Shown in pieces: positions 1 through 20,139 of a stretch of 23,638 nt of DNA; within the stretch, counting starts at the first letter, position 1; every line of letters begins with the position of its first letter. The position numbers and the translations under genes are program-made. Origin of the DNA: Candidatus Woesearchaeota archaeon (GTDB lineage Archaea > Nanobdellota > Nanobdellia > Woesearchaeales > UBA10216); NCBI GenBank assembly GCA_016180085.1, contig JACPBX010000002.1, positions 1-23,638 of the forward strand. The letters are read 5' to 3'. The notes under the pieces were generated by a model. It did not search any database and had not been told where the DNA came from. It saw nothing but the letters and a program-made list of their open reading frames with translations.

Positions 1-93
1 CTAACCGAATATCAGACTCGCCCATCTTTTTGGTCAAGCTTTTTGCTTGCAAAAAGGTTGTGCGGCGTTCTAGCCAAGCTGAACTATGGGCCC
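1..93 (-). tRNA. tRNA-Ile(GAU), 5' part only, with introns at 30/31 (61..17, 45 nt) and 37/38 (starts at 9, runs off the window)
   Basis: Minus strand reads GGGCCCA-TA-GTTC-AGCTTGGCTA-GAAC-G-CCGC|intron|T-CT-GAT-A|intron. Intron 1 BHB: CGCC pairs with intron GGCG, with 3-nt bulges GCA and AGT. Intron 2: CTGA pairs with TTAG (4..1). The 3' half is outside the window. Confidence 0.8.
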
Positions 94-108
94 AATGATG
101 ATAATAAG

Positions 109-267
109 CGCCCCGGGCCAGACTCGAACTGGCGACCATCCACTCCTATTGAGGATTTGTGGTATCCGCTAGCAAGTAACAGCTTCGTAAGCTTAATGAA
201 TAAGCCATTAAAGCGTCACACGCTCTACCTGTTGCTCCGCTGTTGGCAGCGTCTAAGCTACCGGGGC
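109..267 (-). tRNA. tRNA-Asn(GUU) with four BHB introns: 252..232 (15/16), 216..184 (30/31), 176..164 (37/38), 156..138 (44/45)
   Basis: 159 nt minus 86 nt of introns gives the 73-nt cloverleaf GCCCCGGTAGCTTAGCAGGTAGAGCGTGTGGCTGTTAACCACAAGGTCGCCAGTTCGAGTCTGGCCCGGGGCG. All stems pair, and each intron has a 4-bp central helix with two 3-nt bulges. Confidence 0.9.
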
Positions 268-300
268 ATGACCTTTTTAGAAAAAAGGTCAATCAAAAAG
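268..300. repeat. Palindromic repeat element (core copy) abutting the tRNA-Asn 5' end
   Basis: ATGACCTTTTT-AGA-AAAAAGGTCAATCAAAAAG; 30/33 identical to 13577..13609; contains a perfect 10-bp inverted repeat. Confidence 0.85.
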
Positions 301-370
301 CGGAAGAGGGCGGTTTATATACTTTTTGCCACAGTTAAATATTAATATGACCGCAGCAGCCGCCATTCTA

Positions 371-700
371 ATGATAACCTGGCAGGATTTTGAAAAAGTT
401 GAAATGCGCGTGGGCACTGTGATCTCTGCCGAGGATTTTCCCGAAGCGAAAAACCCGGCTTACAAGCTCACCATTGACTTTGGAAGCTTCGGAATTAAGA
501 AGTCAAGCGCGCAGATAACAAAGCTATACGGCAAAAAGGAACTTATGGGGAAACAAGTCATCGCTGTTGTCAACTTTCCGCCAAAGCAGATAGCTAATTT
601 TATATCGGAATGCCTCGTTCTTGGCGTTGTGATGGAAAACAATGAAATCGTATTGCTGCAGCCGGAAAGGAAGGTTAATAACGGCTGCAGAATAGCTTGA
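371..700 (+). CDS. csaA: tRNA-binding OB-fold protein / CsaA-type chaperone
   Basis: ITWQDFEKVEMRVGTV, PAYKLTIDFG, KKSSAQIT, AVVNFPPKQIA and SECLVLG are characteristic of the CsaA/Trbp111 family. Start uncertain (347 or 371). Confidence 0.85.
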   Translation: MITWQDFEKVEMRVGTVISAEDFPEAKNPAYKLTIDFGSFGIKKSSAQITKLYGKKELMGKQVIAVVNFPPKQIANFISECLVLGVVMENNEIVLLQPERKVNNGCRIA

Positions 701-716
701 TGGAGGACTGAACCAA

Positions 717-1259
717 ATGGAATCTGAAGACTTTAAGCTGCCGATTGGCTCGCCGCTCATAAGCTTTGACATGAAGGGCACTGACGGCAGGAATTACATG
801 TCAAAGTACTACCTGAACAGGGATTTCCTGATTGTTGTGTTTACATGCAACCACTGCCCTTATGCCCAGGCTTACGAGGACAGGATTATCGCCATAGCAA
901 AGGAGTTCTCAAAAAACGCTGCCTTTTTTGCGATAAACTCAAACGACGCAAGCAAATACCCGCAGGACAGCTTTGAGAACATGAAAATCAGGGCAAGTGA
1001 AAAAGGCTTCCCATTCCCGTATCTGCATGACGAAAGCCAGGAAACAGCAAGGGCTTACGGCGCTTTGGTAACCCCTCACTGCTTCGTCTTCGACAAGTCC
1101 GGAAGGCTCGCTTACCAGGGCGGCGTTGATGACAACTGGGAAAACCCGAAAGCCGCGACAAAACACTACCTGAGGGATGCGTTGCTGGAGTTATCCGCAG
1201 GCAAGCCTGTCACAAAGAAAACTGCTCCTGTTATTGGGTGCTCGATAAAGTGGAAATGA
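717..1259 (+). CDS. Thioredoxin-fold AhpC/TSA-family (peroxiredoxin-like) protein
   Basis: FTCNHCPYA CxxC motif, FAINSND, FPYLHDESQETARAYGA, TPHCFVFD, YQGGVDD and C-terminal GCSIKW. Confidence 0.85.
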   Translation: MESEDFKLPIGSPLISFDMKGTDGRNYMSKYYLNRDFLIVVFTCNHCPYAQAYEDRIIAIAKEFSKNAAFFAINSNDASKYPQDSFENMKIRASEKGFPFPYLHDESQETARAYGALVTPHCFVFDKSGRLAYQGGVDDNWENPKAATKHYLRDALLELSAGKPVTKKTAPVIGCSIKWK

Positions 1260-1276
1260 TTGTGATGGCGTTTATG

Positions 1277-1364
1277 CGCCGGAGGCGGGATTTGAACCCA
1301 CGTGACTCGGTGTGAGTCTCCTGCTCCTGAAGCAGGTGCAATAACCAGACTATGCGACTCCGGC
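1277..1364 (-). tRNA. Class II tRNA, anticodon CAG (nominally Leu) on a Ser-like body
   Basis: GCCGGAG-TC-GCAT-AGTCTGGTTA-TTGC-A-CCTGC-TT-CAG-GA-GCAGG, long variable arm GACTC/GAGTC, GTGGG-TTCAAAT-CCCGC, CTCCGGC, G73. Confidence 0.9.
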
Positions 1365-1559
1365 ATTGCACAAACGCCGCTACAAGTGCTTCTTTTCAGA
1401 TTCATAAGTTTTACCGTCGATTTTCAGCAAATTTTACGAGAATCACGAAAGAATTTCAATACAGGGCGTATTTTTTTCTATTTTTTCAAGATTTATTGAA
1501 AGATTTCCAAGAATATCGCAAATTCGCCAGGCAGATTTACAGAAGGCTTAGTGAGTTAG

Positions 1560-1574
1560 CGAAAGGTTTAAATA
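1560..1574 (+). promoter_or_regulatory. Putative BRE-TATA promoter with no adjacent ORF
   Basis: CGAAAGG followed by TTTAAATA; the next real ORF starts about 150 bp downstream and has its own TATA box. Confidence 0.4.
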
Positions 1575-1678
1575 AAACATAACACCTAATAGCTATAAAT
1601 CGGTGTGAGTCAGAGTTTTTCTGCAATAGCCGGGCTATGGGACCCGCGCTTTTTTATTTTAAAAATCCAACCATTAAC

Positions 1679-1702
1679 TTTATAAAACAGTTTATAAAAC
1701 AG
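1679..1702 (+). promoter_or_regulatory. Tandemly duplicated TATA box upstream of the Dph6-family gene
   Basis: TTTATAAAACAG occurs twice (1679..1690, 1691..1702); the second TATA lies about 24-31 nt before ATG 1722, the usual archaeal spacing for a short or absent leader. Confidence 0.55.
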
Positions 1703-1721
1703 CGGCAGCTGCAAATTCCAT

Positions 1722-2462
1722 ATGAACGTCGCAATCATGTACTCCGGTGGCAAGGACAGCAACTACGCTGTCCAGCACGCTTTGGAGAAAGGCTGGAACA
1801 TTAAGTATCTTCTCTCGGTAAAGCCGACCAGGACTGACTGCTACCTTTTCCACTTTGCTACGGTTGAGCACACTCCATTGCAGGCAGAAGCATTGGGACT
1901 AAAGCATTATCTTCTCAGCTGCAATGTTGCTGACCCTAAGAAGGAGGCAGCGATAGTGGAAAAATTCGTCGCTGAAAAGCAAAAGTCGAAGGCAGAGAAG
2001 GTTGATGCTGTATTGCTTGGCGGAACCGGCTTGCAGGCAACCCAGATAAGGAGCATTCAGGAAGCCCTGATGCCTTACGGGATTGAGGTTTTCGCTGCGC
2101 ATTCTGGAGATGACCATGAAACTATTTTCAGGAAGATGCTGGCTGACGGTTTTGACATAATTGTTACTCAAGTGGCTGCAGAGGGCGCTCCAAAGTGGCT
2201 TGGCAAGACAATAACTAAAGAAAACTTTGAGGAATTGAAAAAGGATTCTGAGAGGTATGGCTTTCATTTAGGCTTTGATGGCGGTCACATGGACACATTT
2301 GTTGTTGACGCCCCAACGTTCGTCAGGAAAATAATTGTCGATGACATGGAAACGGTAATGGAAGATGCCTATTCGGGGCATGTTGTGATTAAGAAGCTCA
2401 GGCTTGACGGCAAGAAACCGCAGAAGGAAGGTCAGGTTGTCGCAGCAAAAGTTACTGCCTGA
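1722..2462 (+). CDS. dph6: PP-loop ATP pyrophosphatase, diphthine--ammonia ligase (Dph6/MJ0570) family
   Basis: N-terminal MYSGGKDS PP-loop, YLFH...LQAEALG, IIVTQVAAEG, WLGKTI, GFHLGFDGGHMDTFVVDAPTF. Confidence 0.75.
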   Translation: MNVAIMYSGGKDSNYAVQHALEKGWNIKYLLSVKPTRTDCYLFHFATVEHTPLQAEALGLKHYLLSCNVADPKKEAAIVEKFVAEKQKSKAEKVDAVLLGGTGLQATQIRSIQEALMPYGIEVFAAHSGDDHETIFRKMLADGFDIIVTQVAAEGAPKWLGKTITKENFEELKKDSERYGFHLGFDGGHMDTFVVDAPTFVRKIIVDDMETVMEDAYSGHVVIKKLRLDGKKPQKEGQVVAAKVTA

Positions 2463-2649
2463 ATTCTTCGTTTTTTCAGCCATATTGACCGAAACATATT
2501 TAAACAAAAGAAGCATTGTTTTTCTGTTGATTTTCCGACGACAAAATCGGGCTTGAAGCAGCCCAAAAACAGCTTAAAAACAGCCCAGAAAAGGGGCGCA
2601 TTCTGAGCTCCGGGAAAAACAGTCAAAAATCACGAAAATAGTGGCAAAA

Positions 2650-4602
2650 ATGGCAGATTCGGAAGCTGCGGCAACGGCAGCAAAGGAAGCGAAAGATGTG
2701 AATGACGCTAAAGAAAAATACGATGCGTCAAGCATCCAGGTTCTTGAAGGGCTCGAGTCGGTAAGGAAAAGGCCTGGCATGTACATAGGCAGCACCAGCG
2801 CCACAGGGCTGCACCACCTGGTTTATGAGGTGGTTGATAATTCCGTTGACGAGGCCCTGGCTGGCTACTGCACAAGGATAGCTGTCGTCATCCATCCTGA
2901 TAATTCTGTCACGGTCAGCGATAACGGGAGAGGGATACCTTTTGAAGTGATGCCGCAGTACAAGAAGACAGCATTGGAGATTGTGATGACAAAGCTCCAC
3001 GCTGGCGGAAAGTTTGACAGGAAGAGTTACAAGGTCTCAGGCGGCTTGCATGGAGTGGGGGTTTCTGTCGTTAATGCGCTTTCCACGAGGATGACTGTTG
3101 AGGTCAGGCGCGATGGGAAGGTGTGCAGGCAGACGTATGAGAAAGGAAACCCGGTCACCGATGTTGAGTTTGCCGGGAGCACAGCTGCTGGCGAAACCGG
3201 CACGACAGTCACCTTTGTGCCGGATTCCACAATCTTTGAGACAACTGATTTTAACTTTGATGTTCTTTCAAGCAGGCTGAGGGAGCTCGCGTTCCTTAAC
3301 CCAAAGCTGGAGATTTCCATAAGGGAGGAGCGCTCCGGCAAGGAGCACACCTTCAAGTACGATGGCGGGATAAAATCGTTTGTCGAGTTCATCAACCAGA
3401 ACAAGAAGGCCATGCACGAGGTTGTTCACATCCAGGGCCAGAAGAACGGCACGCAGATAGAGGCCGCATTCCAGTATAACGACGGATACCTGCCCAACAT
3501 CTTCAGCTTCGTAAACACGATAAACACTGTTGAGGGAGGCACTCACCTTTCAGGCTTCAGGACTGCGCTTACAAGGACGGTAAACACCTACGCTGAGAAG
3601 CACAGGCTCCTTGACAAGGACACAAAGATTTCAAGCGAAGACACAATTGAGGGCATGTCGGCAGTCATTGCCATCAAGGTGGCTGAGCCGCAGTTTGAAG
3701 GCCAGACAAAGAAAAAGCTTGGAAACTCTGAGGTAAAGGGCCTCGTTGACTCGGCAATCAGCTCTTCCCTCTCAACCTTTCTCGAGGAAAACCCGAAGAC
3801 TGCAAGGACAATCGTGGAGAAGTGCGTTAACGCTGCCATGGCAAGGGAAGCGGCAAGGAAGGCCAAGGACCTTGTGAGGAGGAAGACGCTGTTCGAGGGC
3901 AGCTCGCTGCCGGGAAAGCTTGCTGACTGCTCAAGCACGGACCCGGCCCAGTGCGAGCTTTACATCGTTGAGGGCGACAGCGCTGGCGGAAGCTGCAAGC
4001 AGGCAAGGAACCGGGAGTTCCAGGCGGTGCTGCCGCTGAAAGGCAAAATCCTAAATGTTGAGAAGGCAAGGCTGCACAAGATATTCGCTAGCAGGGAAAT
4101 CGTTGCCTTGGCTTCTGCCATTGGAACAGGCGTTGGCGACGATTTTGACGCAAAAAAACTCCGCTACCACAGGATAATTTTAATGTGCGACGCTGACGTT
4201 GACGGCTCCCACATCCGGACATTGCTGCTGACCTTCTTTTTCAGGTATATGAAGCAGCTTATCGAAGCAGGCTATGTTTACATCGCCCAGCCACCCCTGT
4301 ACAAGCTGACAAAGAGCAGGAAGGACTACTACGTTTACAACGACTCGAAACTGCAGGAGCTGCTGCAGCAACTCGGAGAGGATGGGATTTCGCTTCAGCG
4401 CTACAAAGGGCTTGGCGAGATGAACCCCGAGCAGCTCTGGTCAACAACCATGAATCCTGAAACCAGGGCACTGCTGAGAGTCAGCGTTGACGACGCTGTG
4501 GAAGCAGACAAGATATTCACAATCCTGATGGGCGAGGAAGTCGAGCCGAGAAGGCTGTTTATCGAGCAGCACGCGCTTGAGGTAAGGAACCTCGACGTTT
4601 AA
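2650..4602 (+). CDS. gyrB: DNA gyrase subunit B
   Basis: YDASSIQVLEGLESVRKRPGMYIG, EVVDNSVDE, LHAGGKF, GGLHGVGVSVVNALS, EGDSAGG, PLKGKILNV, DADVDGSHI, QRYKGLGEMNPEQLW and C-terminal NLDV. Alternative GTG start at 2641. Confidence 0.97.
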   Translation: MADSEAAATAAKEAKDVNDAKEKYDASSIQVLEGLESVRKRPGMYIGSTSATGLHHLVYEVVDNSVDEALAGYCTRIAVVIHPDNSVTVSDNGRGIPFEVMPQYKKTALEIVMTKLHAGGKFDRKSYKVSGGLHGVGVSVVNALSTRMTVEVRRDGKVCRQTYEKGNPVTDVEFAGSTAAGETGTTVTFVPDSTIFETTDFNFDVLSSRLRELAFLNPKLEISIREERSGKEHTFKYDGGIKSFVEFINQNKKAMHEVVHIQGQKNGTQIEAAFQYNDGYLPNIFSFVNTINTVEGGTHLSGFRTALTRTVNTYAEKHRLLDKDTKISSEDTIEGMSAVIAIKVAEPQFEGQTKKKLGNSEVKGLVDSAISSSLSTFLEENPKTARTIVEKCVNAAMAREAARKAKDLVRRKTLFEGSSLPGKLADCSSTDPAQCELYIVEGDSAGGSCKQARNREFQAVLPLKGKILNVEKARLHKIFASREIVALASAIGTGVGDDFDAKKLRYHRIILMCDADVDGSHIRTLLLTFFFRYMKQLIEAGYVYIAQPPLYKLTKSRKDYYVYNDSKLQELLQQLGEDGISLQRYKGLGEMNPEQLWSTTMNPETRALLRVSVDDAVEADKIFTILMGEEVEPRRLFIEQHALEVRNLDV

Positions 4603-4700
4603 GTGTAAATCCTTGAACAACGCCAGCGCAGAAAGCAGGAATACAGCAAAACCCAGAATGGAAAAAATTATTAATAAAAAGCATAGAAAGACAATAATTT

Positions 4701-4919
4701 ATGGCAAAGCCAAAGTGGTTTATTGGATTTAAGCTATTAATTATTGCTACATTAGTTGGTTTGTTTACAGTGGCACTATTTCTTTTTCCAATTTTCGGAA
4801 TCTTCACAAAATTTTTGCCATTCGTTTTTATATTAGTTTTAGTAATTTTCATTGAACCAATTTATGATTTTATTCATGGCAAAGGTGCTTTTAGACAATG
4901 GTTAAAAATGCATAAATGA
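4701..4919 (+). CDS. Small AT-rich two-TM membrane protein, hypothetical
   Basis: 72-aa ORF with two hydrophobic stretches; about 28% GC by hand count versus roughly 50% in flanking genes. Confidence 0.55.
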   Translation: MAKPKWFIGFKLLIIATLVGLFTVALFLFPIFGIFTKFLPFVFILVLVIFIEPIYDFIHGKGAFRQWLKMHK

Positions 4920-4989
4920 CTAAAACAGCTGACATTAACCAGCCTTCACTTACCAGTCACCGTTTTACCAATACCACACCATCGCAACC

Positions 4990-4997
4990 TTTTTAAA
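4990..4997 (+). promoter_or_regulatory. Putative TATA box of rps3ae
   Basis: TTTTTAAA about 26-33 nt upstream of ATG 5023. Confidence 0.5.
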
Positions 4998-5022
4998 CGG
5001 GCTGTCAGTTCTCAAAAAGTTG

Positions 5023-5763
5023 ATGGCAGAAGCAAAGCAGGCATTGAAGATTGTGAAGAAGAAGTGGCTGCCGATAAGGGCGAGCAAGTTCTTTAACAAT
5101 GAGTTCCTGGGAGAGTGCTATATCCCGGGGCCGGAACAGCTTCTTGGCAGGACCATTTCAGCAAATCTTGCAAATCTTACCGGTGACATAAGACAGCAGT
5201 CGGTAACGCTCAAGTTCCTGGTCACGTCGTTAGAGGGTGATGCAGGCATTGCAGATGTCGTCAGCTGCGAAATGGCCCCTTCAGCGATAAGGCGCATAGT
5301 CAGGAGGGGCTCTGACAGGCTTGACGAGTCATTCATATGCGAGATAGAAAACGGGCAGAAGGTCAGGATAAAGCCAATGATAATAACCAAAGCAGCAACA
5401 AACAGCGCAGTCCACCGCCTGCTTAGGAACGCCCTCGTCAGCAGCATTGCCAAATACGTCAGGAAACACACCTTTGAGTCGCTGATAAACGAGGTAATCA
5501 CCTCAAAACTCCAGACAACAGTCAAGTCAGAGCTTAAGAAGGTCTATCCACTGAAAGCTGTTGAGGTCAGGGCACTTGAAATTGTCCGTGAGGAGAGGAA
5601 GGGCGGGGAAAAAGAAGGTGAGTCGAAGGGCGAAGATACTGCCAAAGAGCAGGGCAGCCAAGGCAGCCAGGACACCGTCCAAGGAGAGCCAGAAGAGCAG
5701 GAAGTGGAAGAGGCGCAGGAAGAGACTGCTGCCGAAGCCGAAGTGCCCGAAAAACAGGATTAA
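5023..5763 (+). CDS. rps3ae: 30S ribosomal protein S3Ae (eS1) with acidic C-terminal tail
   Basis: KKKWLPIRASKFF...LGRTI..NLANLTGD and IRRIVRRGSDRLD; ends the fold with KKVYPLKAVEVRALEI. This protein is specific to archaea and eukaryotes. Confidence 0.9.
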   Translation: MAEAKQALKIVKKKWLPIRASKFFNNEFLGECYIPGPEQLLGRTISANLANLTGDIRQQSVTLKFLVTSLEGDAGIADVVSCEMAPSAIRRIVRRGSDRLDESFICEIENGQKVRIKPMIITKAATNSAVHRLLRNALVSSIAKYVRKHTFESLINEVITSKLQTTVKSELKKVYPLKAVEVRALEIVREERKGGEKEGESKGEDTAKEQGSQGSQDTVQGEPEEQEVEEAQEETAAEAEVPEKQD

Positions 5764-5900
5764 CCAAACACGCCTTTTATCTCTATTTAGTAGTGGTTAA
5801 AAACCTTCTTATAGTGTGCAATGAAAAAAAGCGCTGGTAGTTGCAGCTCTATCAAAAAGAGAGGTTTAAAAGAGGCATAAAGAATAAAGAGGTTCAGATT

Positions 5901-8105
5901 ATGGCTAATGACGCCGAAACAGAAGCAAAACCAGAAGCTGTAAAGACAGGCGCCGACAGGCTTCTTGAGCTTGTGAAGGGCTCGAAGGAGATTGCGCTGG
6001 CTGATGCAGCCCAGCGGCTGGGCGTCCCTGTCCAGACAGTTGAGGCGTGGTCTAATTTTCTCGAGGAAGACGGCCTTATAGCTGTGAAGTACAAGTTCAC
6101 AACGCCTTATCTTTCCTCTCCTGAAGCGCCAAAGGCTGCAGCAAAAAACAGGCTTCTCGGCATTGTTTCCGAAGGGCCTCAGGGCCTTGAAGGGATGGAA
6201 AAGGCCGGGGAGCTTGTTGACGTCAAGGCCTCTGTTGAAAGCGCAAGGGAGCTTCTCACCAAGGCATCTGAAGAAAAAACCATAGGCGAGTTTGGCTTGT
6301 TGAGGCAGACCTATGAGGACCTGCTGGCTAAGTTAAGGCTTGCCCATGACAGGCTCGCAGCCCAGCCAGGCATTGCACCGCAAAAGAGGGTTGCACTCAG
6401 TGAGTTTCTGAAAAGGCTTGACAGCATGCTCCAGTCAGCTGCCGATTATGTTTCCGAGGGAAGGTTTGACCAGGCAAATATATCTTATTCAGGCCTGCAA
6501 AAGCAGGCAGAGAAGACTGCTGAGGAGCTAAACCAGGTTTACGAGCAGATTGTCACGGTCAAGTCAGTTCAGGAAACCAAGGACTACAAGGAGCTCCTCG
6601 AAAAGGTTTACCAGCTCATGGAGGAAGGCAGGGTGGAGGAGGCGAAGCAGCTTTATGAGAAGCTGGAATTCGCCCGTGAGAACCTGGCAAAAGATTTTGT
6701 TGAGAAGAGGCAGAACATGGAGGAAGACCTTGTCAAGCTCAACAAGGACCTTGCAAGGAAGGTTGACCAGCTTAACATCAAAAAGCTCGGGGAGATGAGC
6801 AGGCGCATAAACCTGCTGCTGGATTCAGGCAGGCAGTTCCTCAGGAAGGGGGAGTTTGACACTGCAGAATCGTATTACACAGCCATAAAGCACGAATACG
6901 CCAAACTTCCTCCAGGCTTCGCAAAGGAAAAAAAGGAGCTGCAGGAGAAGGTGCTTGGTTTCTACAGCTCGCTTGCAAGCCAACGGGAGAAAGAGCTGAG
7001 GAAAGCCTTTGACAGGTCAGTGAAGGAGGTCCAATCCCTGATTAAGGAAACCCACAGCGTCATAAGCGAAAACAGGATAGGGGATGCCATCAAACTCTAC
7101 AACCGCGTCAGGACTCTTTTCGCAAGGCTGCCAAGGGGCTTTCTCGAGGAAAAGGCCGAACTGCAGGAAAAGATACTTCCCCTGTACACAGCAATAACCT
7201 CGGAATACACGCAGGAATCCCTCCGCAGGCTCAAGTCAAAGTCTGCCGATATAATAAGCCTGCTGGGCATGATGAACGAGCGCACAGAAAAGGGCGAGAT
7301 AAGGGAAGCCGAGGAGGCCTACGAAAGGATAAAACAGCTCTACCGTGAAATGCCTGAAGGCTTTCTTCACGAGGAAACCACCCTGCAGAACCAGATAGTG
7401 CAGGCTTACGAGGCATACCTGAAGAAAGCCAGGCTGCTGGAAACAACCAGCTTTGCCTCAGCGCTTTCTGAAATGTCAAAGCTTCTGGACAGTGCAGAAG
7501 GGGAACTGAAGAGAGGCGATTACGATTCTGCCAATGGCACATACCTCAAGATAATCAGCTTATACGACACCTTACCACCAGGCTTCATGGCTCAGAAGAC
7601 CGAGGTCAGGGGGAGGGTTCTCCGCCTTTACAAGGCACTGCTATCCGAAAGCTATCCTGTTTCAGGGGGGCTGGGGCAGGCAGGAGGAAAGGCAATCGGC
7701 AGGCAGCAAAAAAGGCCAGGCGCTGCAACTGCTGCAGCTACAGCAGGCTCTTCTGTCAGCGAAATGATTAAGCTCATTACCGATGTTCACACTGCTGTAC
7801 TGCACGGGAACTTCCGGTTCCTGCAGGGAATAATGCCAAGGCTTGATGCCCTTTCCAAGAGGCTGCCAAACCTTGCCAAAATAAGCCCGAGAATCTTTTC
7901 AAGGGTATCAGACTTAAGGGAAGAGCTGGAGCTGTACAAAAAAGCCTTGTCGCTCCAGGCGCTTTTCGAATCAAAACAGTCCAGGCAGCTGAAATCCGCC
8001 CTTGACTTAATTAAAAGGCAGTGCAGCATCCTGGTGCAGCGGTGCCCCGAGGACAAGGCCCTGTTTGACTACATAACAGGCCAGCATGATGTTTGGCCAG
8101 CATGA
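5901..8105 (+). CDS. Large helical-repeat protein (N-terminal wHTH-like segment plus five 74-aa LPxGF repeats); 5' part of a probably frameshifted gene
   Basis: GAGGT SD before ATG 5901; LPxGF-type motifs at 6684, 6906, 7128, 7350 and 7572 with an exact 222-nt period; the stop arises inside a 16-bp duplication. Confidence 0.8.
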   Translation: MANDAETEAKPEAVKTGADRLLELVKGSKEIALADAAQRLGVPVQTVEAWSNFLEEDGLIAVKYKFTTPYLSSPEAPKAAAKNRLLGIVSEGPQGLEGMEKAGELVDVKASVESARELLTKASEEKTIGEFGLLRQTYEDLLAKLRLAHDRLAAQPGIAPQKRVALSEFLKRLDSMLQSAADYVSEGRFDQANISYSGLQKQAEKTAEELNQVYEQIVTVKSVQETKDYKELLEKVYQLMEEGRVEEAKQLYEKLEFARENLAKDFVEKRQNMEEDLVKLNKDLARKVDQLNIKKLGEMSRRINLLLDSGRQFLRKGEFDTAESYYTAIKHEYAKLPPGFAKEKKELQEKVLGFYSSLASQREKELRKAFDRSVKEVQSLIKETHSVISENRIGDAIKLYNRVRTLFARLPRGFLEEKAELQEKILPLYTAITSEYTQESLRRLKSKSADIISLLGMMNERTEKGEIREAEEAYERIKQLYREMPEGFLHEETTLQNQIVQAYEAYLKKARLLETTSFASALSEMSKLLDSAEGELKRGDYDSANGTYLKIISLYDTLPPGFMAQKTEVRGRVLRLYKALLSESYPVSGGLGQAGGKAIGRQQKRPGAATAAATAGSSVSEMIKLITDVHTAVLHGNFRFLQGIMPRLDALSKRLPNLAKISPRIFSRVSDLREELELYKKALSLQALFESKQSRQLKSALDLIKRQCSILVQRCPEDKALFDYITGQHDVWPA

Positions 8106-8110
8106 TGTTT
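8079..8110. repeat. Perfect 16-bp tandem duplication GGCCAGCATGATGTTT x2
   Basis: Copies at 8079..8094 and 8095..8110; both overlapping ORFs contain GQHDV. Confidence 0.95.
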
Positions 8111-8514
8111 ACCTTTCAAAGCTGATGTCTTATGGACAACAGAGTAGCCAGCCATCCGCACCAGTATCAGCCCCTGCAGCAGCTGCAATGCCTAATGCGC
8201 CGTATTATGAATTGGCTCATAAGCCAGCTCCGATAGCTGCAACTACAAGGGAGGTTCCTGCCAGCGAGCTGCTTGAAAAACCTCAGGCAATCCAGACTGG
8301 GCAAATGGAAGAGCCAGCCGACGCAGAGGAAAGCGAAGCTGGGGAAGCAGAAGCAACGGGAACAACAAACGCAGAAAGCCGTGCTGCCGATGAAGATGAG
8401 GGTTTTCATGATACTCGGGACATAGAAAACTTAGATACGGAAATAGAGGGCATCCGTAAAAAGATTGAAGAGCTGAAAGGCCTGAGCAAGGCAACAGTCA
8501 AGCTCCCGGGATGA
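8086..8514 (+). CDS. Acidic low-complexity region plus short coiled coil; probably the C-terminus of the 5901 gene
   Basis: Becomes in frame with 5901..8105 when one 16-bp copy is removed (...YITGQHDVYLSKLMSYGQ...). Confidence 0.6.
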   Translation: MMFGQHDVYLSKLMSYGQQSSQPSAPVSAPAAAAMPNAPYYELAHKPAPIAATTREVPASELLEKPQAIQTGQMEEPADAEESEAGEAEATGTTNAESRAADEDEGFHDTRDIENLDTEIEGIRKKIEELKGLSKATVKLPG

Positions 8515-12050: not shown

Positions 12051-12067
12051 CTTCTGCCCGGCTCCCC

Positions 12068-13356: not shown

Positions 13357-13453
13357 AGCATTTGCAGAAACCTGGCTGGTTTAATAAGTTTTTGCAGCAA
13401 CATATTTAAAAAGCCCGACTAAGACATCGTAGGGTTGATAAGGGCAATCGCGC

Positions 13454-13539
13454 CTTTTGGATTGAACCTTTTGCTTGCAAAAGCCCAAATCGAGGCGAGC
13501 TCGATTGGGCCCAGTCGACGCAAGTCGACTTGGGGTCAT
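13454..13539. repeat. Expanded palindromic repeat element abutting the tRNA-Arg 5' end
   Basis: CTTTTGGATTGAACC-TTTTGCTTGCAAAAG, two internal hairpins (CCCAAATCGAG/CTCGATTGGG and CAGTCGAC/GTCGACT), then GGTCAT immediately before tRNA G1. Confidence 0.8.
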
Positions 13540-13668
13540 GCCCCTATGGTCCAACGGACAAGATGCGGCCCCGCGAATGACCTTTTTGGTAAAAAGGTCA
13601 ATCAAAAACGGCTGCTTTTATTCAGTCGTGGGTAGGCTGAGATCTGGGTTCAATTCCCAGTGGGGGCG
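13540..13668 (+). tRNA. tRNA-Arg(GCG) with a 57-nt 37/38 intron (13577..13633); unusual C33
   Basis: GCCCCTA/TGGGGGC acceptor, A20 in the D-loop (Arg determinant), CGGCC/GGCTG anticodon stem, CTGGG-TTCAATT-CCCAG T-arm, G73. BHB: CCGC pairs with GTGG, with bulges GAA and GTA. Confidence 0.75.
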
Positions 13669-13671
13669 TTA

Positions 13672-13719
13672 GCCACTACTGGGTCCTGAGCCGAAAGGCG
13701 AAGTTACCCAGTGGGGGCG
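13672..13719 (+). ncRNA. tRNA-like acceptor/T-stem minihelix hairpin downstream of tRNA-Arg
   Basis: GCCACTA-CTGGG ... CCCAG-TGGGGGC-G; the last 13 nt are identical to the tRNA 3' end; capped by GCC-GAAA-GGC. Confidence 0.5.
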
Positions 13720-13738
13720 CTTTATAGTTGCAACAAAA

Positions 13739-14548
13739 ATGGCCAAGCTAGTTTTAATGACAGCACTTTTGCTTGCGGTGCTGGTAGCAGCATGCACAGC
13801 CAAGCCAGATGGAGCATATCAAGCCCAGCCCCAGCAATTGCCAACAAACATAGAGCAGAACATAGCGCAGGAACAGCCACCACAGCAAGTGCAAATTGTG
13901 CAGGAGGAAAAACCGCACGAGGAAGGGGCGCAGGACCGGTTTTATTACGTGAGCAGGCTGCACTGGCCGCGCATGCCCGTTACTTATTTTATAGAGAATG
14001 AGGAGGGGTGCGGCCGTTATGAAGCCAACAGGATCAGAAGGGCATTCAGGGACATTTCAAATGCTACTGGCAACGCAGTGCTCTTTGCGCAGGCAAACGA
14101 TTCAGGCTCGGCAGATATTGAAATAAGGTGCACCTTCATAGAGGATTGCTATGAGCTGTCAACAGACATACGCGACGATTACGTCATTCGGACTGAAACC
14201 ATCTGCCAGCACCCGCTGGGCATTACAAAGACACTGGCAGAAGGCAACAGGCTGACGAAGGCTTACATCGAAATGGTTGGGCTTGCAGGCTTTGCAGAAA
14301 CAAAGCACGAGGGTCCAAGCGGGTTTTACGTTGGCACATGCGGCCACACAACAACTGAAATCCATGAGCTGCTTCACGCATTCGGCTACGGCCATTCGGA
14401 AGACAACAGCAGCATAATGAGCCCTGAAGCTGATGTTTTCGGCCTGACAATACAAAGGGAAGGCGCCTGCAAGGGGAGCACAAAGGCAATCGATGCAGCC
14501 ATAGTTGCAGAACTGGTTAACACCTACTCGGGCAAAGCCGGAAATTAG
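13739..14548 (+). CDS. Putative lipoprotein metzincin zinc metalloprotease (matrixin-like)
   Basis: Lipobox-like LVAAC after a hydrophobic signal, Q/P-rich linker, HELLHAFGYGH (HExxHxxGxxH) and Met-turn SIMSP. Confidence 0.85.
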   Translation: MAKLVLMTALLLAVLVAACTAKPDGAYQAQPQQLPTNIEQNIAQEQPPQQVQIVQEEKPHEEGAQDRFYYVSRLHWPRMPVTYFIENEEGCGRYEANRIRRAFRDISNATGNAVLFAQANDSGSADIEIRCTFIEDCYELSTDIRDDYVIRTETICQHPLGITKTLAEGNRLTKAYIEMVGLAGFAETKHEGPSGFYVGTCGHTTTEIHELLHAFGYGHSEDNSSIMSPEADVFGLTIQREGACKGSTKAIDAAIVAELVNTYSGKAGN

Positions 14549-14669
14549 AGCCCGTTTAGAACCTGTTGCCATTTGAAAATTAAGCATTAAATATTTAAAG
14601 CTGCCATGCTGACAGCAACTGACAGCAATAAAGGAAAAATTAAAAGAAAAGTCAAGGAGGTAACTCAGA

Positions 14670-14909
14670 ATGTCAAAGGTAACCATTTACAGCACGCCAA
14701 CATGCCCCTGGTGCGAGAAGGCAAAGGAGTTTCTAAAGGAGAACAACGTCCATTACAGCGAGATAAACGTTGCTGCCGACCACAAGGCAGCGCAGGAAAT
14801 GATCGAGAAGTCAGGCCAGATGGGCGTTCCGGTAATAGAGATTGACAACCAGATTATAGTGGGCTTTGACAAGAACGCAATGAAGAAGGCGCTGAAGATA
14901 AGCTCATAA
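14670..14909 (+). CDS. Glutaredoxin-like protein (NrdH/YruB type)
   Basis: YSTPTCPWC, SGQMGVPVIEI and IIVGFD; GGAGG SD upstream. Confidence 0.92.
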   Translation: MSKVTIYSTPTCPWCEKAKEFLKENNVHYSEINVAADHKAAQEMIEKSGQMGVPVIEIDNQIIVGFDKNAMKKALKISS

Positions 14910-14933
14910 AGCAGCCTTTGATATTCTATTTTC

Positions 14934-16199
14934 TTAAATGTAATACCCAATCACCGGCACCATCAGGCAGCCCATCAGGAGCTGCCGGCTTGACTTCGTA
15001 AGCACGGGAAACATGCCTATTGCGGTTGCGGCTGCCAGCACAAGCAGCCCTATAGGCCCTGAAATGGCTGCAACAAAGCCTGCTATGAATATTATGACCA
15101 GCCAGCTGAGGACAGAATAGTTCACTCTTGTTATCAGCAGCAGGAAAAATCTGGTCATAAAAATTACGCTTATGCATGAAGCTGCTGCGGCAATAACGGC
15201 TACCATAAGCAGCATAAACAGCAGCGAAGTTGAATAAGCATCAGCGCCAAGCATGCTGCCCATCACTGCTATTGAGCCGTTCCTTGCCTTGCCAAAAGAG
15301 TAAAGGGTTAGCACTGCAATGAGCATGGAGGCAGAAGCTATTATCCCTAGGAGGAAAATGTACGCTGATGCCCTCACCTTGCGGAAAGCAGATGTTCCTA
15401 GCATTGCAGCCTGCGCAGGGCCAAGTGCAGGGAAGATTCCCATCAGCGAGCTGGAGAAAAGCCCGACAGCAGCGAGCTTTGCAATTTTCAGCGGCTTTTT
15501 TATTTTAATCACTGAGTTTTTCTGCTGCAGGGGAAAAGCAGAGCGGTTTAATAATCCGCCAATGAGCGAGCTTATGCCGAAAAGCCCCGAGAACATTGGC
15601 AGCAGAGGCTGGTTTATGCCTGGCAGGCTGAAAACCGCAACGCCGAAGGCCCCCGAAAGCGAGAATGTCAGCGCCTTGGCAGCTGCAGATTTTACGTTTT
15701 TGCTCCTCAGCAAGTGAAAGGCAGCAACTGCTGCCAGGATGAGCCATACATAGCCATTTGTTGCGTTAAATATCGGCTTTATCGCAAGCACCAGCACCGG
15801 GGAAAGCAGGACAAGCGCCAAAACGCCGGTCAGGCAGCCGAAGGCTGCAAGCATTACAGCTTTCCTTCCCTGGCCGCGAAGAAGCAGCCTGTGCCCAGGC
15901 AAAACCGCCAGGGCAGCATCGGATTCTGAAAAGCCCAGGAAGACAGATGGCAGAAACTCATGGAACACGTGGCTGATTGACATCGCCAGAATGAAGGTTG
16001 CAACAGCAAAAGAGCCAATAACTCCGCCAACTGTGCTGTTGCCGCTTATAACACTGCCACTGAAAACAGCCGCAACAACCACAGCAACAAGGTTAATGTG
16101 CAGGCCAGGGAGGATGCCTGTAAAAATGCCGGCAAGAACCCCTGCAAAGGCTGCTAAGATGTAAATAAAAAAGCTAATCAGGCTTTCCAAATTCCTCAC
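14934..16199 (-). CDS. TctA / DUF112-family polytopic membrane protein
   Basis: GIFTGILPGLHINL, FHEFLPSVFLG, AVLPGHRLLLRGQG and GIFPALGPAQAA match the archaeal TctA-like family; many TM segments. Start uncertain. Confidence 0.8.
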   Translation of the reverse strand: MRNLESLISFFIYILAAFAGVLAGIFTGILPGLHINLVAVVVAAVFSGSVISGNSTVGGVIGSFAVATFILAMSISHVFHEFLPSVFLGFSESDAALAVLPGHRLLLRGQGRKAVMLAAFGCLTGVLALVLLSPVLVLAIKPIFNATNGYVWLILAAVAAFHLLRSKNVKSAAAKALTFSLSGAFGVAVFSLPGINQPLLPMFSGLFGISSLIGGLLNRSAFPLQQKNSVIKIKKPLKIAKLAAVGLFSSSLMGIFPALGPAQAAMLGTSAFRKVRASAYIFLLGIIASASMLIAVLTLYSFGKARNGSIAVMGSMLGADAYSTSLLFMLLMVAVIAAAASCISVIFMTRFFLLLITRVNYSVLSWLVIIFIAGFVAAISGPIGLLVLAAATAIGMFPVLTKSSRQLLMGCLMVPVIGYYI

Positions 16200-16626
16200 C
16201 GCAGCCGCAGCTAGTCAGTGTTGATAAGGGCGGCGTAGAGCTGCCCTTATTGCCGTTAAGAACCCTTATTTTGGCAACGATGACTGAAGCCCTGCCCTTA
16301 TATTCCCTCAGTTCGCCAAAAACCTCAACCTCCTGGAATCTTTTAAGCCCAAGGCCCTTTATGTAGCCGGCATCAAAGCTGACTGCTTCGACAGTTTCCA
16401 ACTCGGCAATTTTCACAACAGCGCGGCTTTCCGCAATGGAAACAGAGTCAACAAAGCCAGCGACCTTTATCATGGGGCTATTGCCGCTCCTCGCATCAAG
16501 CTTAGCTGCCCCTGATGGCGAAACCTGCAGCGGCCCTGCAACAGACGCTATAACGAACAGCGCAACAATCCCGATTGCAGAGCATGTTATGCATAATACA
16601 ACCAGCTTTCTCTCAGACAATAACAT
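16174..16626 (-). CDS. Membrane-anchored OB-fold nucleic-acid-binding-like protein
   Basis: N-terminal TM segment, then VAGFVDSV...QEVEVFGELREYKGRASVIVAKIRV, a beta-rich OB-like pattern; overlaps the TctA start by 26 nt. Confidence 0.6.
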   Translation of the reverse strand: MLLSERKLVVLCITCSAIGIVALFVIASVAGPLQVSPSGAAKLDARSGNSPMIKVAGFVDSVSIAESRAVVKIAELETVEAVSFDAGYIKGLGLKRFQEVEVFGELREYKGRASVIVAKIRVLNGNKGSSTPPLSTLTSCGCGEEFGKPD

Positions 16627-16795
16627 AGTACATCGAAACAAATTAGGCGAACAGTCTTAATGAGCTTTACTGAGAAATAATCGGAAGATTTCCATAGTCG
16701 CCGCAGAGAATAGCTCTGGGCACGGATAATTTTCACAAAAGAGGCTTTTTTCGGGAAGGTTTTCGGACAAACCGGAAATTAAACACCAGAACCTA

Positions 16796-17809
16796 TCAAA
16801 CCTCATCAGTTCTCCAGTAAGGCCTTATGGCTGACTTTTCCACAGGCGTCCTAGTGCCTTTTAAGTATTCCAGTATTCCAAGCCACGCTATCATTGCTGC
16901 GTTGTCTACAAGAAACTGCCTTTCCGGCACAAACAATTTAGCTCCCCTTTCCTCGCACATTACCCCGCACATCTCCTGCAACCTTGTGTTGCACGCAACC
17001 CCACCGCCGAGAAGCAGCTCGCTCTTGCCGGTGTGGGCCAATGCCCTTTCAGCGACTTCCACAAGCATTGCGAACACTGTTTCCTGCAGCGAGTAGCATA
17101 AATCCTCTTTGCTGTAGCTTCCACTGTCGTATTTGCGTTTAATGTTCGTCAGTATGCCCCCGAAGCTCACATCCATGCCCTTCACAACATAGGGAAGTTC
17201 AATATATTTTCCTCCCTTGGCAGCTGCTTTTGCCGCGAGTCTCATTATCTGGGAACCTCCAGGAAAGCCTATTCCTATCTGCCTTGCGAACTGGTCGAGC
17301 ATGTTGCCAACCCCCATGTCAAGGGTCTCGCCAAAAATCCTGTATTTCCCTGCCTCAAATGCAATTACCTGTGTGTTGGCTCCTGAAACGTATAGCTTTC
17401 CAATCTCAAGGTGGCTTATGCAGTGGTTAACTCCGATAAGGGGCTTTTTGTGAACCAGCGAGAGGGTTCTTGCAGCCGCTGCCCCAACCCTCAGGCAGTG
17501 GCCTATGCCGGGGCCTTGCGAAAAGGACACGATGTCAATGTCATGCATCGCTATTTTCGCAGCTGCCAGTGCTTCTGTTATTGCCTTATCGCATACCTCA
17601 ACATGGTGCTCTGCTGCCTGTGCCGGGATTATGCCGCCTGATTTTGTTGTGAACTGCTTTATTACGTTCGCCAGTATTTTACGGCGCATCCCGTTTTTGG
17701 CTGCAGCTGGTGCCGAGATAGCAGTTTTAGCCTTACCGGCAGCAGCTAGTCCAACACCGAATGTGTGGGCTGTGCTTTCGATGCCAAGGCAGACAATCCT
17801 GTTTCGCAT
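16796..17809 (-). CDS. kae1: tRNA N6-threonylcarbamoyladenosine synthesis protein Kae1 (TsaD family), with apparent indels
   Basis: LGIESTAHTFGVG, FSQGPGIG, NHCISHLE, YVSGANTQ, GETLDMGVGNMLD, KGMDVSFGG, SLQETVFAMLVE, GGGVACN, DNAAMIA and RTDEV. TATA-like TTTAAAAA about 25-32 nt upstream. Confidence 0.95.
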   Translation of the reverse strand: MRNRIVCLGIESTAHTFGVGLAAAGKAKTAISAPAAAKNGMRRKILANVIKQFTTKSGGIIPAQAAEHHVEVCDKAITEALAAAKIAMHDIDIVSFSQGPGIGHCLRVGAAAARTLSLVHKKPLIGVNHCISHLEIGKLYVSGANTQVIAFEAGKYRIFGETLDMGVGNMLDQFARQIGIGFPGGSQIMRLAAKAAAKGGKYIELPYVVKGMDVSFGGILTNIKRKYDSGSYSKEDLCYSLQETVFAMLVEVAERALAHTGKSELLLGGGVACNTRLQEMCGVMCEERGAKLFVPERQFLVDNAAMIAWLGILEYLKGTRTPVEKSAIRPYWRTDEV

Positions 17810-17903
17810 AACCTGACTGGTCTGGCCGGTTATTTTTAAATTTGCTCATAAACTACGAAAAACTAAGAAAATCTGTAATACCGTTCTTTACTTTGCCGGA
17901 TTC

Positions 17904-18737
17904 TCACAGCCTGCCTTCCGCCAGGCCCTGTTCGCTGAAGAATAATGCCACAATCAGGACAATCGCATAGGCTGCCAGGGGCAGGAAAGCCGGGATGGCA
18001 ACAGGGCTGTGCTGCAGCAGGAAGGCTGCAAAGTCTAGGACTATCAGTACTGTAGCTGCGTAAGCTGCTATCTTGAGTGCGTCCAGCAGCGAGGCATCGC
18101 CTTTTGAAATTTTAATTGCAAGATAAGCCAGGGCAGATGCTGCAATTATGATTGCGGTATATTTCACGACCATCGACAGGTAGAACAAAATGAGAAGGCC
18201 TGGAAGCATCAGAAGGATAAGGGCTGAAGCCGTGCCTGCCAGTTCGCCCTTTCCGCTGCCTTTCACAAGGTCCAGCTCCCTTATTGGCTTTGCGTTTTGT
18301 TTCGGCCTGAACAGGCTGCATATTTCGCTGCGAAAGAAGCACAGGAGCGGTTTTGTCCGCAGCTCTGTGCCTGTGAGAACAACATCGTACTGTGCTGATT
18401 TTTTTGCATCGGCGGTTGTGTTTATGAAGATTTTCATGTTGCCAAGCCACGGAAACCCGGACTCAATCGGCGCTTTGGTCGCAAGTTCTGTCTTTATGTC
18501 AAACTTGGAGAACTTGTCCAGCTGCGATGAAATGCCGCTGTTCAGGTTTGCAATTGAAGGCAGTACAAGGGCTGCCGTTGCCATTGTCACAATGAGCAGG
18601 AGGTAGAGCAGATGGCCTATCACCGGCTTTACTGACTTCTTGGCAACGCTGCGGTAGGCAAGCGGGTTGAACGCGTTGGCAACAGCAAGGAAGAAAGCTG
18701 CTGTGTCCTTTAATTTCATCAGCGATTGTTTTATCAT
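17904..18737 (-). CDS. Hypothetical membrane protein (DUF1189-like topology)
   Basis: N-terminal TM, extracellular domain and four C-terminal TMs. The first 50 codons of the tracked ORF run through a repeat element and the upstream gene end, so the start was reset to ATG 18737. Confidence 0.7.
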   Translation of the reverse strand: MIKQSLMKLKDTAAFFLAVANAFNPLAYRSVAKKSVKPVIGHLLYLLLIVTMATAALVLPSIANLNSGISSQLDKFSKFDIKTELATKAPIESGFPWLGNMKIFINTTADAKKSAQYDVVLTGTELRTKPLLCFFRSEICSLFRPKQNAKPIRELDLVKGSGKGELAGTASALILLMLPGLLILFYLSMVVKYTAIIIAASALAYLAIKISKGDASLLDALKIAAYAATVLIVLDFAAFLLQHSPVAIPAFLPLAAYAIVLIVALFFSEQGLAEGRL

Positions 18738-18741
18738 TTTC

Positions 18742-18823
18742 GTTTTTGATTGACCCCAAAGTCGCTGTTGCGACTGGGCACAGTCGTGTTGCACACGACT
18801 TGGGTTTTTTCCAAAAAGGTCAT
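18742..18823. repeat. Expanded palindromic repeat element between two genes
   Basis: GTTTTTGATTGACC-[AGTCGC/GCGACT and AGTCGTG/CACGACT hairpins]-TTTTTCCAAAAAGGTCAT; same termini as the tRNA-associated copies. Confidence 0.85.
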
Positions 18824-20004
18824 GGGAACGGACTCTCAGGACAGGCTGGCGGCGGCCCAACTCCATATAGGTAATCATCCTGCTCATTTGTCAGGTTGTA
18901 CCTGGCTGCGTGGTAAGAGTCTATTGCGAACCTGTAGAACTCCGGTGGTGGCGTATCAGCATCTTTTGTCACGCACGTCACGTTCCACACCTGGCCTGTC
19001 TGGGCTGCTGTGCACCTGTTGCCTGAGCCGTAGTAGCACCAGTCAACATAAGGCCTTTCCCTCTGCCCGTTCACTGAGGCCATCACGAACGGGTTTATCA
19101 GGCTTTCAACGCCGCAGCACGGCGAGCGCACGTCATTGCCATAGAACCTGTCCAGGAAGCTGGAAGCATTCGGCTCGTGCCTGTATACACGCAAGTCTAT
19201 CTGGCGGTGGAATGTTGAGATGTTCAGATTAGTTATGTTTGTTGCGTTGAAGTAGTTTGTGTAAACAACGCTGCCATCCTCGGCAGCTCCCCTGCTGCCT
19301 ACAGCGTAAAGCGGGTCTGGTATCCCGTGTATGCCGAATATTGTGCTTATGTTTTCAGTGTTGTTTATCATAACATCACCAGCAACTACGGAGTAATTTA
19401 CTGTGAGGTTCACGCCCACCTGCCAGGGACCTGTCCAGTTGTCCTGAAATACCAGCAGCCGCATGGCGTTGTAGTTTTTGCCAAATGACGTGTTTATTCC
19501 GAATGCCCTGAATGAGGCATTTTCCATTTCCTGCAGCCTCCTTGTCAGGTTTCTTCCCCTCATGATTTCAATGCCCAGGCACTGGTCAACGCCTTTGTGA
19601 ATGGCTGGGTTGTTCACGTCTGCAAGGGAGTCCGTGTCGCAAGGCGGCATGTGGCCTGCCAGGCCGCAGCACATTGTGCCGTTTATTATCATCTCTTTAA
19701 GCGTGTTGTTGAATTTAAGGCTGGCGTCTGCGCCCAGGAAGTAGTTGCCCCTTTGCCGCATATAGTCCGCCATTGCGTAGAAGGCGCTGTAAGTGGCGAT
19801 GTAAAGCGACTGGGGAAGGTAGCTGTTTCTCAGGTCCTTTACCTGCGCGTTCGCAGAATCAGCCTTCGCCTGCGTTGCAGGGAGCTGGTCTTTCATAGTT
19901 ACTGCCCTCTGCGTTCCAAAAGTTACTATAAGGACAGCAGCTATAAGTATTGCGATTGAAGTGAAAAAAATTCCCCTTTTAGTTCTCAACAGTATTTTTT
20001 TCAT
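18820..20004 (-). CDS. Large pilin-like protein with class III (prepilin) signal peptide and Cys-rich ectodomain
   Basis: MKKILLRTKRG|IFFTSIAILIAAVLIV; CCG motifs occur twice; lies in an array of similar genes. Confidence 0.75.
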   Translation of the reverse strand: MKKILLRTKRGIFFTSIAILIAAVLIVTFGTQRAVTMKDQLPATQAKADSANAQVKDLRNSYLPQSLYIATYSAFYAMADYMRQRGNYFLGADASLKFNNTLKEMIINGTMCCGLAGHMPPCDTDSLADVNNPAIHKGVDQCLGIEIMRGRNLTRRLQEMENASFRAFGINTSFGKNYNAMRLLVFQDNWTGPWQVGVNLTVNYSVVAGDVMINNTENISTIFGIHGIPDPLYAVGSRGAAEDGSVVYTNYFNATNITNLNISTFHRQIDLRVYRHEPNASSFLDRFYGNDVRSPCCGVESLINPFVMASVNGQRERPYVDWCYYGSGNRCTAAQTGQVWNVTCVTKDADTPPPEFYRFAIDSYHAARYNLTNEQDDYLYGVGPPPACPESPFP

Positions 20005-20034
20005 TGCCGTTGTTGATTTGACGTGGGTTCATAA

Positions 20035-20138
20035 GGGGCTTTGCCCCGTTGCCCTTCAAGCGAGGGTTGATAAGGCACAAGTCGTGTAAGCACGACTGTG
20101 CACAGTCGCCGCAAGGCGACTTGTGGCAGGCTACTGCC
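20035..20138. repeat. Cluster of hairpins including the internal modules of the repeat family
   Basis: CAAGTCGTGT..CACGACTGTGC.CAGTCGC..GCGACTT (20076..20125) matches the reverse complement of the interior of 18742..18823; flanked by GGGGC/GCCCC and GGCAG/CTGCC hairpins. Confidence 0.8.
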
Positions 20139-20139
20139 C

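Follow-up and report, generated by a model that had tools for sequence, protein, structure and literature searches.

The window analyzed here is a 23,638-nt stretch of contig C35 (JACPBX010000002.1) in the 1.0-Mb, 83% complete metagenome-assembled genome (MAG) of a Candidatus Woesearchaeota archaeon; the nearest named homologues of one core gene likewise belong to Ca. Woesearchaeota. The window carries copies of a short hairpin repeat, here called the element, beside and inside tRNA genes and in the spacers between protein genes. An earlier note on this DNA had listed five copies plus a module at 20076-20125, all of which are present at those positions, and had proposed a small mobile element that targets tRNA genes and turns into spliceable introns. 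We denote the genome with the window G000 and other genomes by other G-numbers, contigs by C and fetched loci by L; the congeners compared are species that are ~80-88% identical. The Ile, Asn and Arg tRNA genes of the window are missed by standard tools and could be rebuilt cleanly (Ile from 93 into contig C37, Asn 267-109, Arg 13540-13668); that tRNA finders miss many tRNAs in these genomes is explained by the element. The features of the window are as follows.

10-93, minus strand: 5' part of tRNA-Ile(GAU), with exon 1 at 62-93, intron 1 (position 30/31) at 17-61 and exon 2 at 10-16; central helix CGCC/GGCG, 4/4 pairs
27-60, plus strand: element of the TTGGT-CAAGC/GGTTG subtype, its precise end lying 1 nt into Ile intron 1 from the 5' splice site
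109-267, minus strand: tRNA-Asn(GUU) with several introns, none begun by the element
269-299, minus strand: element of the TTGAT-TGACC/GGTCA subtype, between the TATA box and tRNA-Asn
13432-13454, plus strand: truncated left arm of a second hairpin family, cut off by the younger element that follows
13455-13538, plus strand: composite element upstream of tRNA-Arg, an outer hairpin with a nested double-hairpin module; 13539 is the host's T at position -1
13540-13668, plus strand: tRNA-Arg(GCG) with a 57-nt intron (13577-13633) at 37/38; central helix CCGC/GTGG, 4/4 pairs
13578-13608, minus strand: element starting the Arg intron at its 5' end with an offset of 1 nt, compared in seven congeners
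18743-18822, plus strand: composite element filling a gene spacer, its end giving the TGA stop codon (18820-18822) of the upstream gene
18820-20004, minus strand: 394-aa open reading frame (ORF) with no Pfam match, its terminus supplied by the element
20064-20143, plus strand: copy of the second hairpin family with a TTGAT foot, ending CCCTTAT followed by TGC, and holding the TAA stop codon of the ORF at 20140-20673
20076-20125, no strand assigned: inverted double-hairpin module inserted in the second-family copy, with no target duplication

The rest of tRNA-Ile, intron 2 and exon 3, lies on contig C37, whose end overlaps the start of the window. G007 and G008 share its intron 1, which G003 lacks. 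Upstream of tRNA-Asn, base 268 is the host's T at position -1, with the joint at T-G-C, and G008 has a different subtype at the same site. The site upstream of tRNA-Arg is occupied by other subtypes in G001, G005, G007, G008 and G009, by an intact second-family copy abutting the gene in G006, and by nothing in G003. At the 18743-18822 site, G006 has a TAG stop codon and an ordinary spacer, and G005 and G008 carry, besides the first, an inverted element at the downstream gene's start codon. Two further observations concern tRNA-Arg(GCG): position 33 (13571-13572) is C and not the near-universal U, a state kept in six of seven congeners (T in G007), and the last 13 nt of the gene are repeated downstream at a hairpin end (13669-13719), with one or two such repeats also following the gene in G001, G003, G005 and G008.

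Anatomy and copy number of the element

Read on one strand, the element consists of CG, a T-tract, a G(A/G)T foot, a 5-bp outer stem in which one mismatch is tolerated, T/A arms, a variable loop and the end GGTYR. Bases of the outer stem and hairpin foot change as matched pairs, as seen in searches that imposed no pairing requirement. The earlier note took GGTCAT to be the element's end. That end adjoins G1 of tRNA-Asn (268 next to 267, minus strand) and of tRNA-Arg(GCG) (13539 next to 13540), and inverted it opens the Arg intron (13577) and the Ile 30/31 intron (61), both of which have 4/4 pairs in the central helix of their bulge-helix-bulge (BHB) motif. The element proper stops at GGTYR, and the final base belongs to the host, being tRNA position -1 or the first base of the intron; at 18823 it follows the host's Pro codon (CCA or CCG), and it also matches empty alleles.

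The element's loop can hold an inner module, which is a double hairpin in inverted arrangement with bulged bases and which also moves alone. A partner was found for 98 of 110 module hairpins, and alternating arrays of the repeat occur in G294. The module at 20076 had been described as standing alone; it is instead a 50-nt insertion inside the second-family copy, absent in the sister species G005. This second hairpin family has the same TTGAT foot and ends at the same kinds of sites. It was noted in the window at 20016-20143 and 13432-13454, and it also occurs in G000 at C7:1640, C11:5409, C29:39219 and C41:27176, is followed by TGC, abuts the 5' ends of tRNA-Ser genes in G003 and lies in frame in TrxB. 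An Rfam search returned nothing but a tRNA, and identification of the hairpins as integron attC sites was rejected, the main subtype having no AAC/GTT core.

A scan with the repeat's grammar found ~40 full copies in G000 against 0-1 in Markov controls, and a broader pattern scan found 50 against 1-3. Curation by hand with added subtypes brought the set to 63 copies, ~40% of repeat copies being outside tRNA genes; both this set and the tRNA-junction counts given below are hand-curated.

tRNA junctions and intron gain

Over half of the copies (34 of 63) lie 0-4 nt from a tRNA boundary, compared with 0.26 expected under uniform placement in non-coding DNA, a calculation that assumes 46 tRNAs and 60 introns. 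Twenty-two copies begin an intron, all in one orientation, with the GGTYR end offset from the 5' splice site by 0 nt in 12, 1 nt in eight and 2 nt in two, and with tails mostly of 6-25 nt. Another eight terminate just upstream of a tRNA, oriented opposite to the intron copies and with the -1 base kept, and four lie 2-3 nt beyond the 3' end (N73). Judged by sequence, the introns have the features of archaeal BHB introns: a 4-bp central helix, 3-nt bulges and a cloverleaf that is restored on removal. The central helix has 4/4 pairs in 15 of the 22, 3/4 in six and 2/4 in one (scores for the His and Pro-CGG 37/38 introns were corrected by hand), and the outer helix on the intron side is often missing. 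An EndA splicing endonuclease of 197 aa is encoded on C40 of G000. Six of the 22 intron-start copies belong to a divergent subtype that is seen only inside tRNA introns and may represent tRNA-to-tRNA copies; leaving these six out keeps the conclusion. Some element-bearing T-loop introns were probably also copied between tRNA genes at a later stage. In at least 11 genomes outside the genus, introns begin with the element too, whether in the D-loop, the anticodon loop or the T-loop. In G008, copies in the opposite orientation stop just short of 3' splice sites, and in a pseudo-tRNA the end of the element has cut into the exon.

A dated gain is found in tRNA-Pro(GGG): the 41-nt element intron of G000 is identical to that of G005, and an EF-2 tree places the two as sisters (98/88). 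The gene is without a 37/38 intron in the seven other congeners and in five genomes of other genera, and those of G002 and G007 are otherwise identical to that of G000. The tRNA-Ala(CGC) gene contains an element intron in six congeners, the subtype varying among several, and in none of five genomes from other genera; in G004 and G005 the Ala intron ends with the element, CGAA and 2 nt, and the element's own terminal CG pairs with TTCG of the anticodon loop. Both the Pro(GGG) and the Ala(CGC) introns are almost pure element. These two genes bear out the earlier proposal that the element is a source of new, by prediction spliceable, tRNA introns. The short element-free introns of tRNA-Asn in the window imply that other routes of intron gain also operate here.

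Precise placement could in principle arise from neutral landing, in which insertion is random and selection retains copies in spacers and in pre-existing introns that they merely lengthen. Consistent with this, many introns in G000 are element-free, many end in conserved 3' tails that bear no relation to the element (Thr-CGT, T-loop ends), and in-frame copies are tolerated in proteins. We nevertheless consider neutral landing unlikely, as other genera lack the nearly pure element introns of Pro(GGG) and Ala(CGC), every intron-start copy sits within 0-2 nt of the splice site in one orientation despite its tail, and the oppositely oriented copies of G008 halt just before the 3' splice site.

Several unusual tRNA-like sequences were noted alongside. 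At C30:2013-2135 of G000 (L248) lies a tRNA-shaped element of unknown type with a double-hairpin module in its T-loop, and related units without the insert occur in G007 (L199, L204). Many extra Leu-type tRNA bodies with long variable arms are present, one in the window (1277-1364) and seven at other G000 sites (C22:56668, C14:10856, C14:62556, C7:2173, C36:13856, C41:16208 and C23:14180). Several have the anticodon CAG and others non-Leu anticodons (CCT, GAA), and similar genes in G007 and G008 have GAT, AAG and CTC. The tRNA-Leu(TAG) gene at C23:33529-33630 of G000 has an 18-nt tandem duplication of the T-arm that is absent in four congeners and is possibly an assembly error.

Joints at protein genes, mobility and mechanism

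Start codons, ribosome-binding sites (RBSs), stop codons and a conserved promoter motif are bordered by the precise end as well, which lies 0-3 nt from RBSs, start codons and the promoter motif. In g312, a Nanoarchaeia genus of another order, 15 of the 19 copies stop 1-2 nt short of an ATG, in many cases that of a recognisable ribosomal-protein or enzyme gene. Other copies lie in frame within proteins (L059 and L044 in G008, L300 in G005 and TrxB in G000), the hosts including phosphoglycerate mutase-like and Ogt-like genes, named from their motifs, and TrxB. The trinucleotide TGC follows 12 of 26 non-tRNA copies in G000 versus a 2% background (P = 3.5e-14), and seven of the eight upstream tRNA copies, including that of a Leu gene at C36, are at T(-1)G1C2. 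The eighth, at tRNA-Arg(CCT), a gene starting with GT, joined a TGC 4 nt upstream and not G1. The coincidences with tRNA 5' ends are therefore due to a DNA preference for TGC together with selection, not to RNase P geometry. Thus the strong link to tRNA junctions seen in the earlier note stands, whereas its suggestion that processing sites are targeted as such is not supported, given the same end at protein-gene borders and in-frame sites.

This series of joints also bears on RNA-level targeting, in which excised element RNA would become joined to tRNAs at their processing or splice sites and then return to DNA as a copy. Such a route would fit the very strong junction enrichment, the recurrence of the same intron-start position in the genomes outside the genus and the restriction of the CAGCCC subtype to tRNA introns. 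It is largely refuted by the start-codon copies, with the same end at RBSs and stop codons, and is further weakened by upstream copies that have the opposite orientation, keep the -1 base and in tRNA-Arg(CCT) sit at -4, by 3' copies placed 2-3 nt past N73, and by a motif scan, a weak test, that gave no credible reverse transcriptase. We regard RNA-level targeting as improbable.

Insertion into hairpin-rich targets was not significant (P = 0.07). Two candidate target motifs were rejected: TTGAT, following the logic of ISDra2, because an empty site has no TTGAT (L044 versus C14), and TCAT as a left target, because its cases are mostly start codons on the other strand. The G003 Arg intron retains TTGAT. 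A tandem ACTGGAC motif ~15 nt upstream of a TATA-like box, probably a regulator site, is found in many promoters across the genus and is often abutted by the element (G000 C1:23400-23535, C3:253, C5:5149, C18:11154 and C40:35170; L284-L286).

The repeat pattern is present in all nine congeners and was found in none of 14 genomes of other genera of the same family. Further afield, 18 of 400 other Woesearchaeales genomes carry near-identical copies, as do other orders and one Aenigmatarchaeota MAG; reversed-pattern controls in the wider scans gave zero matches. Numerous sites that hold a copy in G008 or G005 are empty in G000 and vice versa, with further pairs involving G006. Where several species have a copy at one site the subtypes differ, and younger copies occupy the joint with older remnants displaced outward (C6 5873-5926, C11 10638-10695, L027). 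These empty and filled pairs support a small, mobile, REP-like element (REP, repetitive extragenic palindromic sequence). Copies are enriched at tRNA junctions and are not fixed at the same sites across relatives, the reverse of both outcomes that the earlier note had set against its own proposal. The pairs revealed no regular target-site duplication, with one possible 3-nt case at L300. A plasmid search gave no match and a metagenome scan for close strains found none; among viral contigs there was one copy (L340:3879-3909), on the 49-kb IMGVR_UViG_3300037046_000058, which encodes an ArdC anti-restriction protein and a DNA methylase and is a possible vehicle. On contig C2 of G008 (243 kb), 13 of 14 pattern matches face the same way, a possible replication-strand bias confounded with gene orientation.

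The two ends of the element behave differently. The precise end joins host DNA cleanly, and copies stack at the same joint; the far end is ragged, with an extra tail, a flank deletion or a flank duplication. Duplications bounded exactly by the precise end comprise three 53-nt tandem units in G001, duplicated tRNA ends in four distant genomes (G182, G202, G229 and G498) and a diverged second copy of a gene end in G008. In this last case, at L058:5293-5368 (G008 C4), the element lies between two ~70%-identical copies of the last 70 nt of a gene that differ mostly at synonymous sites, a sequence pattern which suggests that a foreign allele was joined by the precise end.

On balance we favor a non-autonomous, polar hairpin resembling REPs and the PATE elements of Haloquadratum, whose one-ended joints, with selection, park its precise end at essential borders and which seeds introns. 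An HUH single-stranded DNA (ssDNA) enzyme, of the IS200/IS605 or REP-associated tyrosine transposase (RAYT) Y1 type, would act in trans to cut the hairpin foot and make the one-ended joints. Repeated joints would delete or replace dispensable DNA beside the precise end, with selection halting them once an essential border is reached, be it the tRNA -1 base, the 3' trailer, a splice site, an RBS or ATG, or a stop codon. An insertion in a tRNA loop with its precise end at the cut would become an intron once the loose end pairs with loop bases such as TTCG. The loose end naturally reads ...AAAAACG plus purines and could thereby supply the BHB central helix that the host EndA needs. In the opposite orientation, extra bases would be needed for a helix at 37/38: a pyrimidine at position 32 can pair with the loose end but not with the fixed one. 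The single orientation of all 22 intron-start copies would then be explained because only the loose end can form the helix.

We put forward the HUH Y1 class for the mobilising enzyme tentatively, because the folded-strand asymmetry, the lack of target duplication and the conserved 5' foot fit Y1 chemistry (PMC6006769). IS200/IS605 elements exist in some congeners. Searches with PF01797 (G000, the family and five other carriers) and PF07282 (the genus) and a scan of G000 ORFs for HUH motifs found no repeat-linked transposase, yielding ordinary IS200/IS605 elements and one RAYT-like gene without flanking repeats. Among the fetched Y1/TnpB loci, including the RAYT-like L333, none is bracketed by the element (the genomes are incomplete). 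TnpB elements of G001 and G007 have TTGAT plus a hairpin at their left ends, a sequence likeness that hints at a possible derivation of the element from an IS605 end; a short BLAST search of one subtype against the transposase loci gave no match at insertion sequence (IS) ends. Solo TnpB elements were noted at L284, L285 and L286 (G001 and G007), the first two with TTGAT-hairpin left ends and TTTAC right ends, and the right end of L284 lies directly against a repeat copy.

Several points weigh against the one-ended hairpin reading. The earlier note saw no transposase in the window, and the families checked, Y1/TnpA and TnpB, are absent from the whole of G000 at its 83% completeness (PF01797 for Y1); TnpA occurs in just two of nine congeners, in neither case flanked by the element. 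Tails shared between unrelated copies are not significant (P = 0.07-0.22). The TGC preference leaves most splice-site joints unexplained and is absent in AT-rich hosts. The ratchet toward essential borders is read from the end states of ~80-88% identical species, not strains, and the tree that dates the gains rests on the single EF-2 gene. No Ala or Ile 30/31 intron, and neither of the two Gly introns, is present in G003; because G003 is nested in the genus, these introns may have been lost there, and they are not counted as gains.

With no transposase linked to the repeat, spread could have been enzyme-free, through replication slippage, template switching and gene conversion at hairpins plus DNA uptake between species. 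TCA microhomology at 4 of ~22 empty-site joints and a G003 Arg intron that resembles the element with its hairpin deleted are in keeping with this, but one end is precise and the other not, TGC is strongly preferred, and near-identical copies reach other orders and an Aenigmatarchaeota MAG; we give this account little credence. Very improbable is a static host signal, a selected hairpin aiding tRNA processing, termination or translation initiation, which most congeners retain at the same tRNA sites and whose end before ATG resembles a Shine-Dalgarno sequence, but which varies in presence by species, swaps subtypes at the same site, was not found in the 14 genomes of other genera and lies in frame in proteins, the empty alleles refuting it as sole explanation (a secondary benefit is possible).

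The one-ended hairpin may have a wider reach. As a tentative extension, the element could exemplify a DPANN-wide, horizontally spread class of one-ended ssDNA hairpins that make tRNA introns de novo, moved by an enzyme not yet repeat-linked in archaea. The loose end would be pre-adapted to pairing with TTCG loops, and the precise end would wear away dispensable DNA as far as each essential base, so that the element would interrupt tRNAs and also rewrite gene borders.

Comparison with known systems

The element shares traits with REPs and their doublet and mosaic forms, REPINs and bacterial interspersed mosaic elements (BIMEs), which are moved by RAYTs (PMC6006769, PMC3733652). Shared are imperfect hairpins of 20-40 nt in dozens of mostly extragenic copies, a conserved foot that stays unpaired on the 5' side of the stem, expansion restricted to certain lineages, inverted doublets, mosaic clusters and some in-frame coding insertions. 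In contrast to the GTAG or CGTC feet of REPs, the feet seen here are TGAT, GGAT, TGGT and CGAT, and also CCGC; no RAYT flanked by the element was found, and the element parks one precise end at essential borders and forms tRNA introns. In archaea, IS200-type proteins alone have been seen among TnpA (PMC6006769).

The PATEs and SMRs of Haloquadratum (PMC3119063) are likewise archaeal, transposase-free and palindromic, nest inside one another's hairpins and leave no target duplication; the empty and filled pairs of the element agree with this, with the palindrome near an end. PATEs differ in having two near-terminal palindromes, where the element has a single hairpin of ~30 nt (PMC3119063), and in the parts of that source consulted they are not described as tRNA introns. 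Rickettsia palindromic elements (RPEs) and the coding repeats of M. jannaschii (reviewed in PMC2229807) also insert in frame in conserved proteins and in RNA genes (tmRNA, M1 RNA). RPEs are 105-146 bp and stay in the RNA product, whereas the element is ~30 bp and is placed, by prediction, for removal as a BHB intron. [quoted passage not shown] The latter label, offered in the earlier note, does not hold: the ends are asymmetric, true terminal inverted repeats are missing and target sites show no regular duplication.

For tRNA introns themselves, the mechanism of transposition has been called unknown in a review (PMC4090602), and a 2026 census of 129 intron gains in Asgard archaea gave no general arrival route (10.64898/2026.10.13.758758). 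A literature search that covered few subscription papers found no description of this element family or of a dispersed repeat seeding archaeal tRNA introns. The present analysis tested a dated intron gain, the rule that one and the same end marks the joints in tRNA and protein genes alike, and an explanation of why intron copies face one way. These results provide a concrete answer to the origin of archaeal tRNA introns in which the donor sequence, its non-tRNA copies, the dated gains and the structural basis of predicted spliceability are all visible, and they show that REP-like elements act in archaea, altering start, stop and tRNA borders. In contrast to the intron transposition of Thermoproteales (Fujishima 2010, reviewed in PMC4090602) and the integrating element of Caldiarchaeum (PMC3293823), the donor here is a genome-wide repeat, and it supplies new intron sequence beyond the copying of existing introns.

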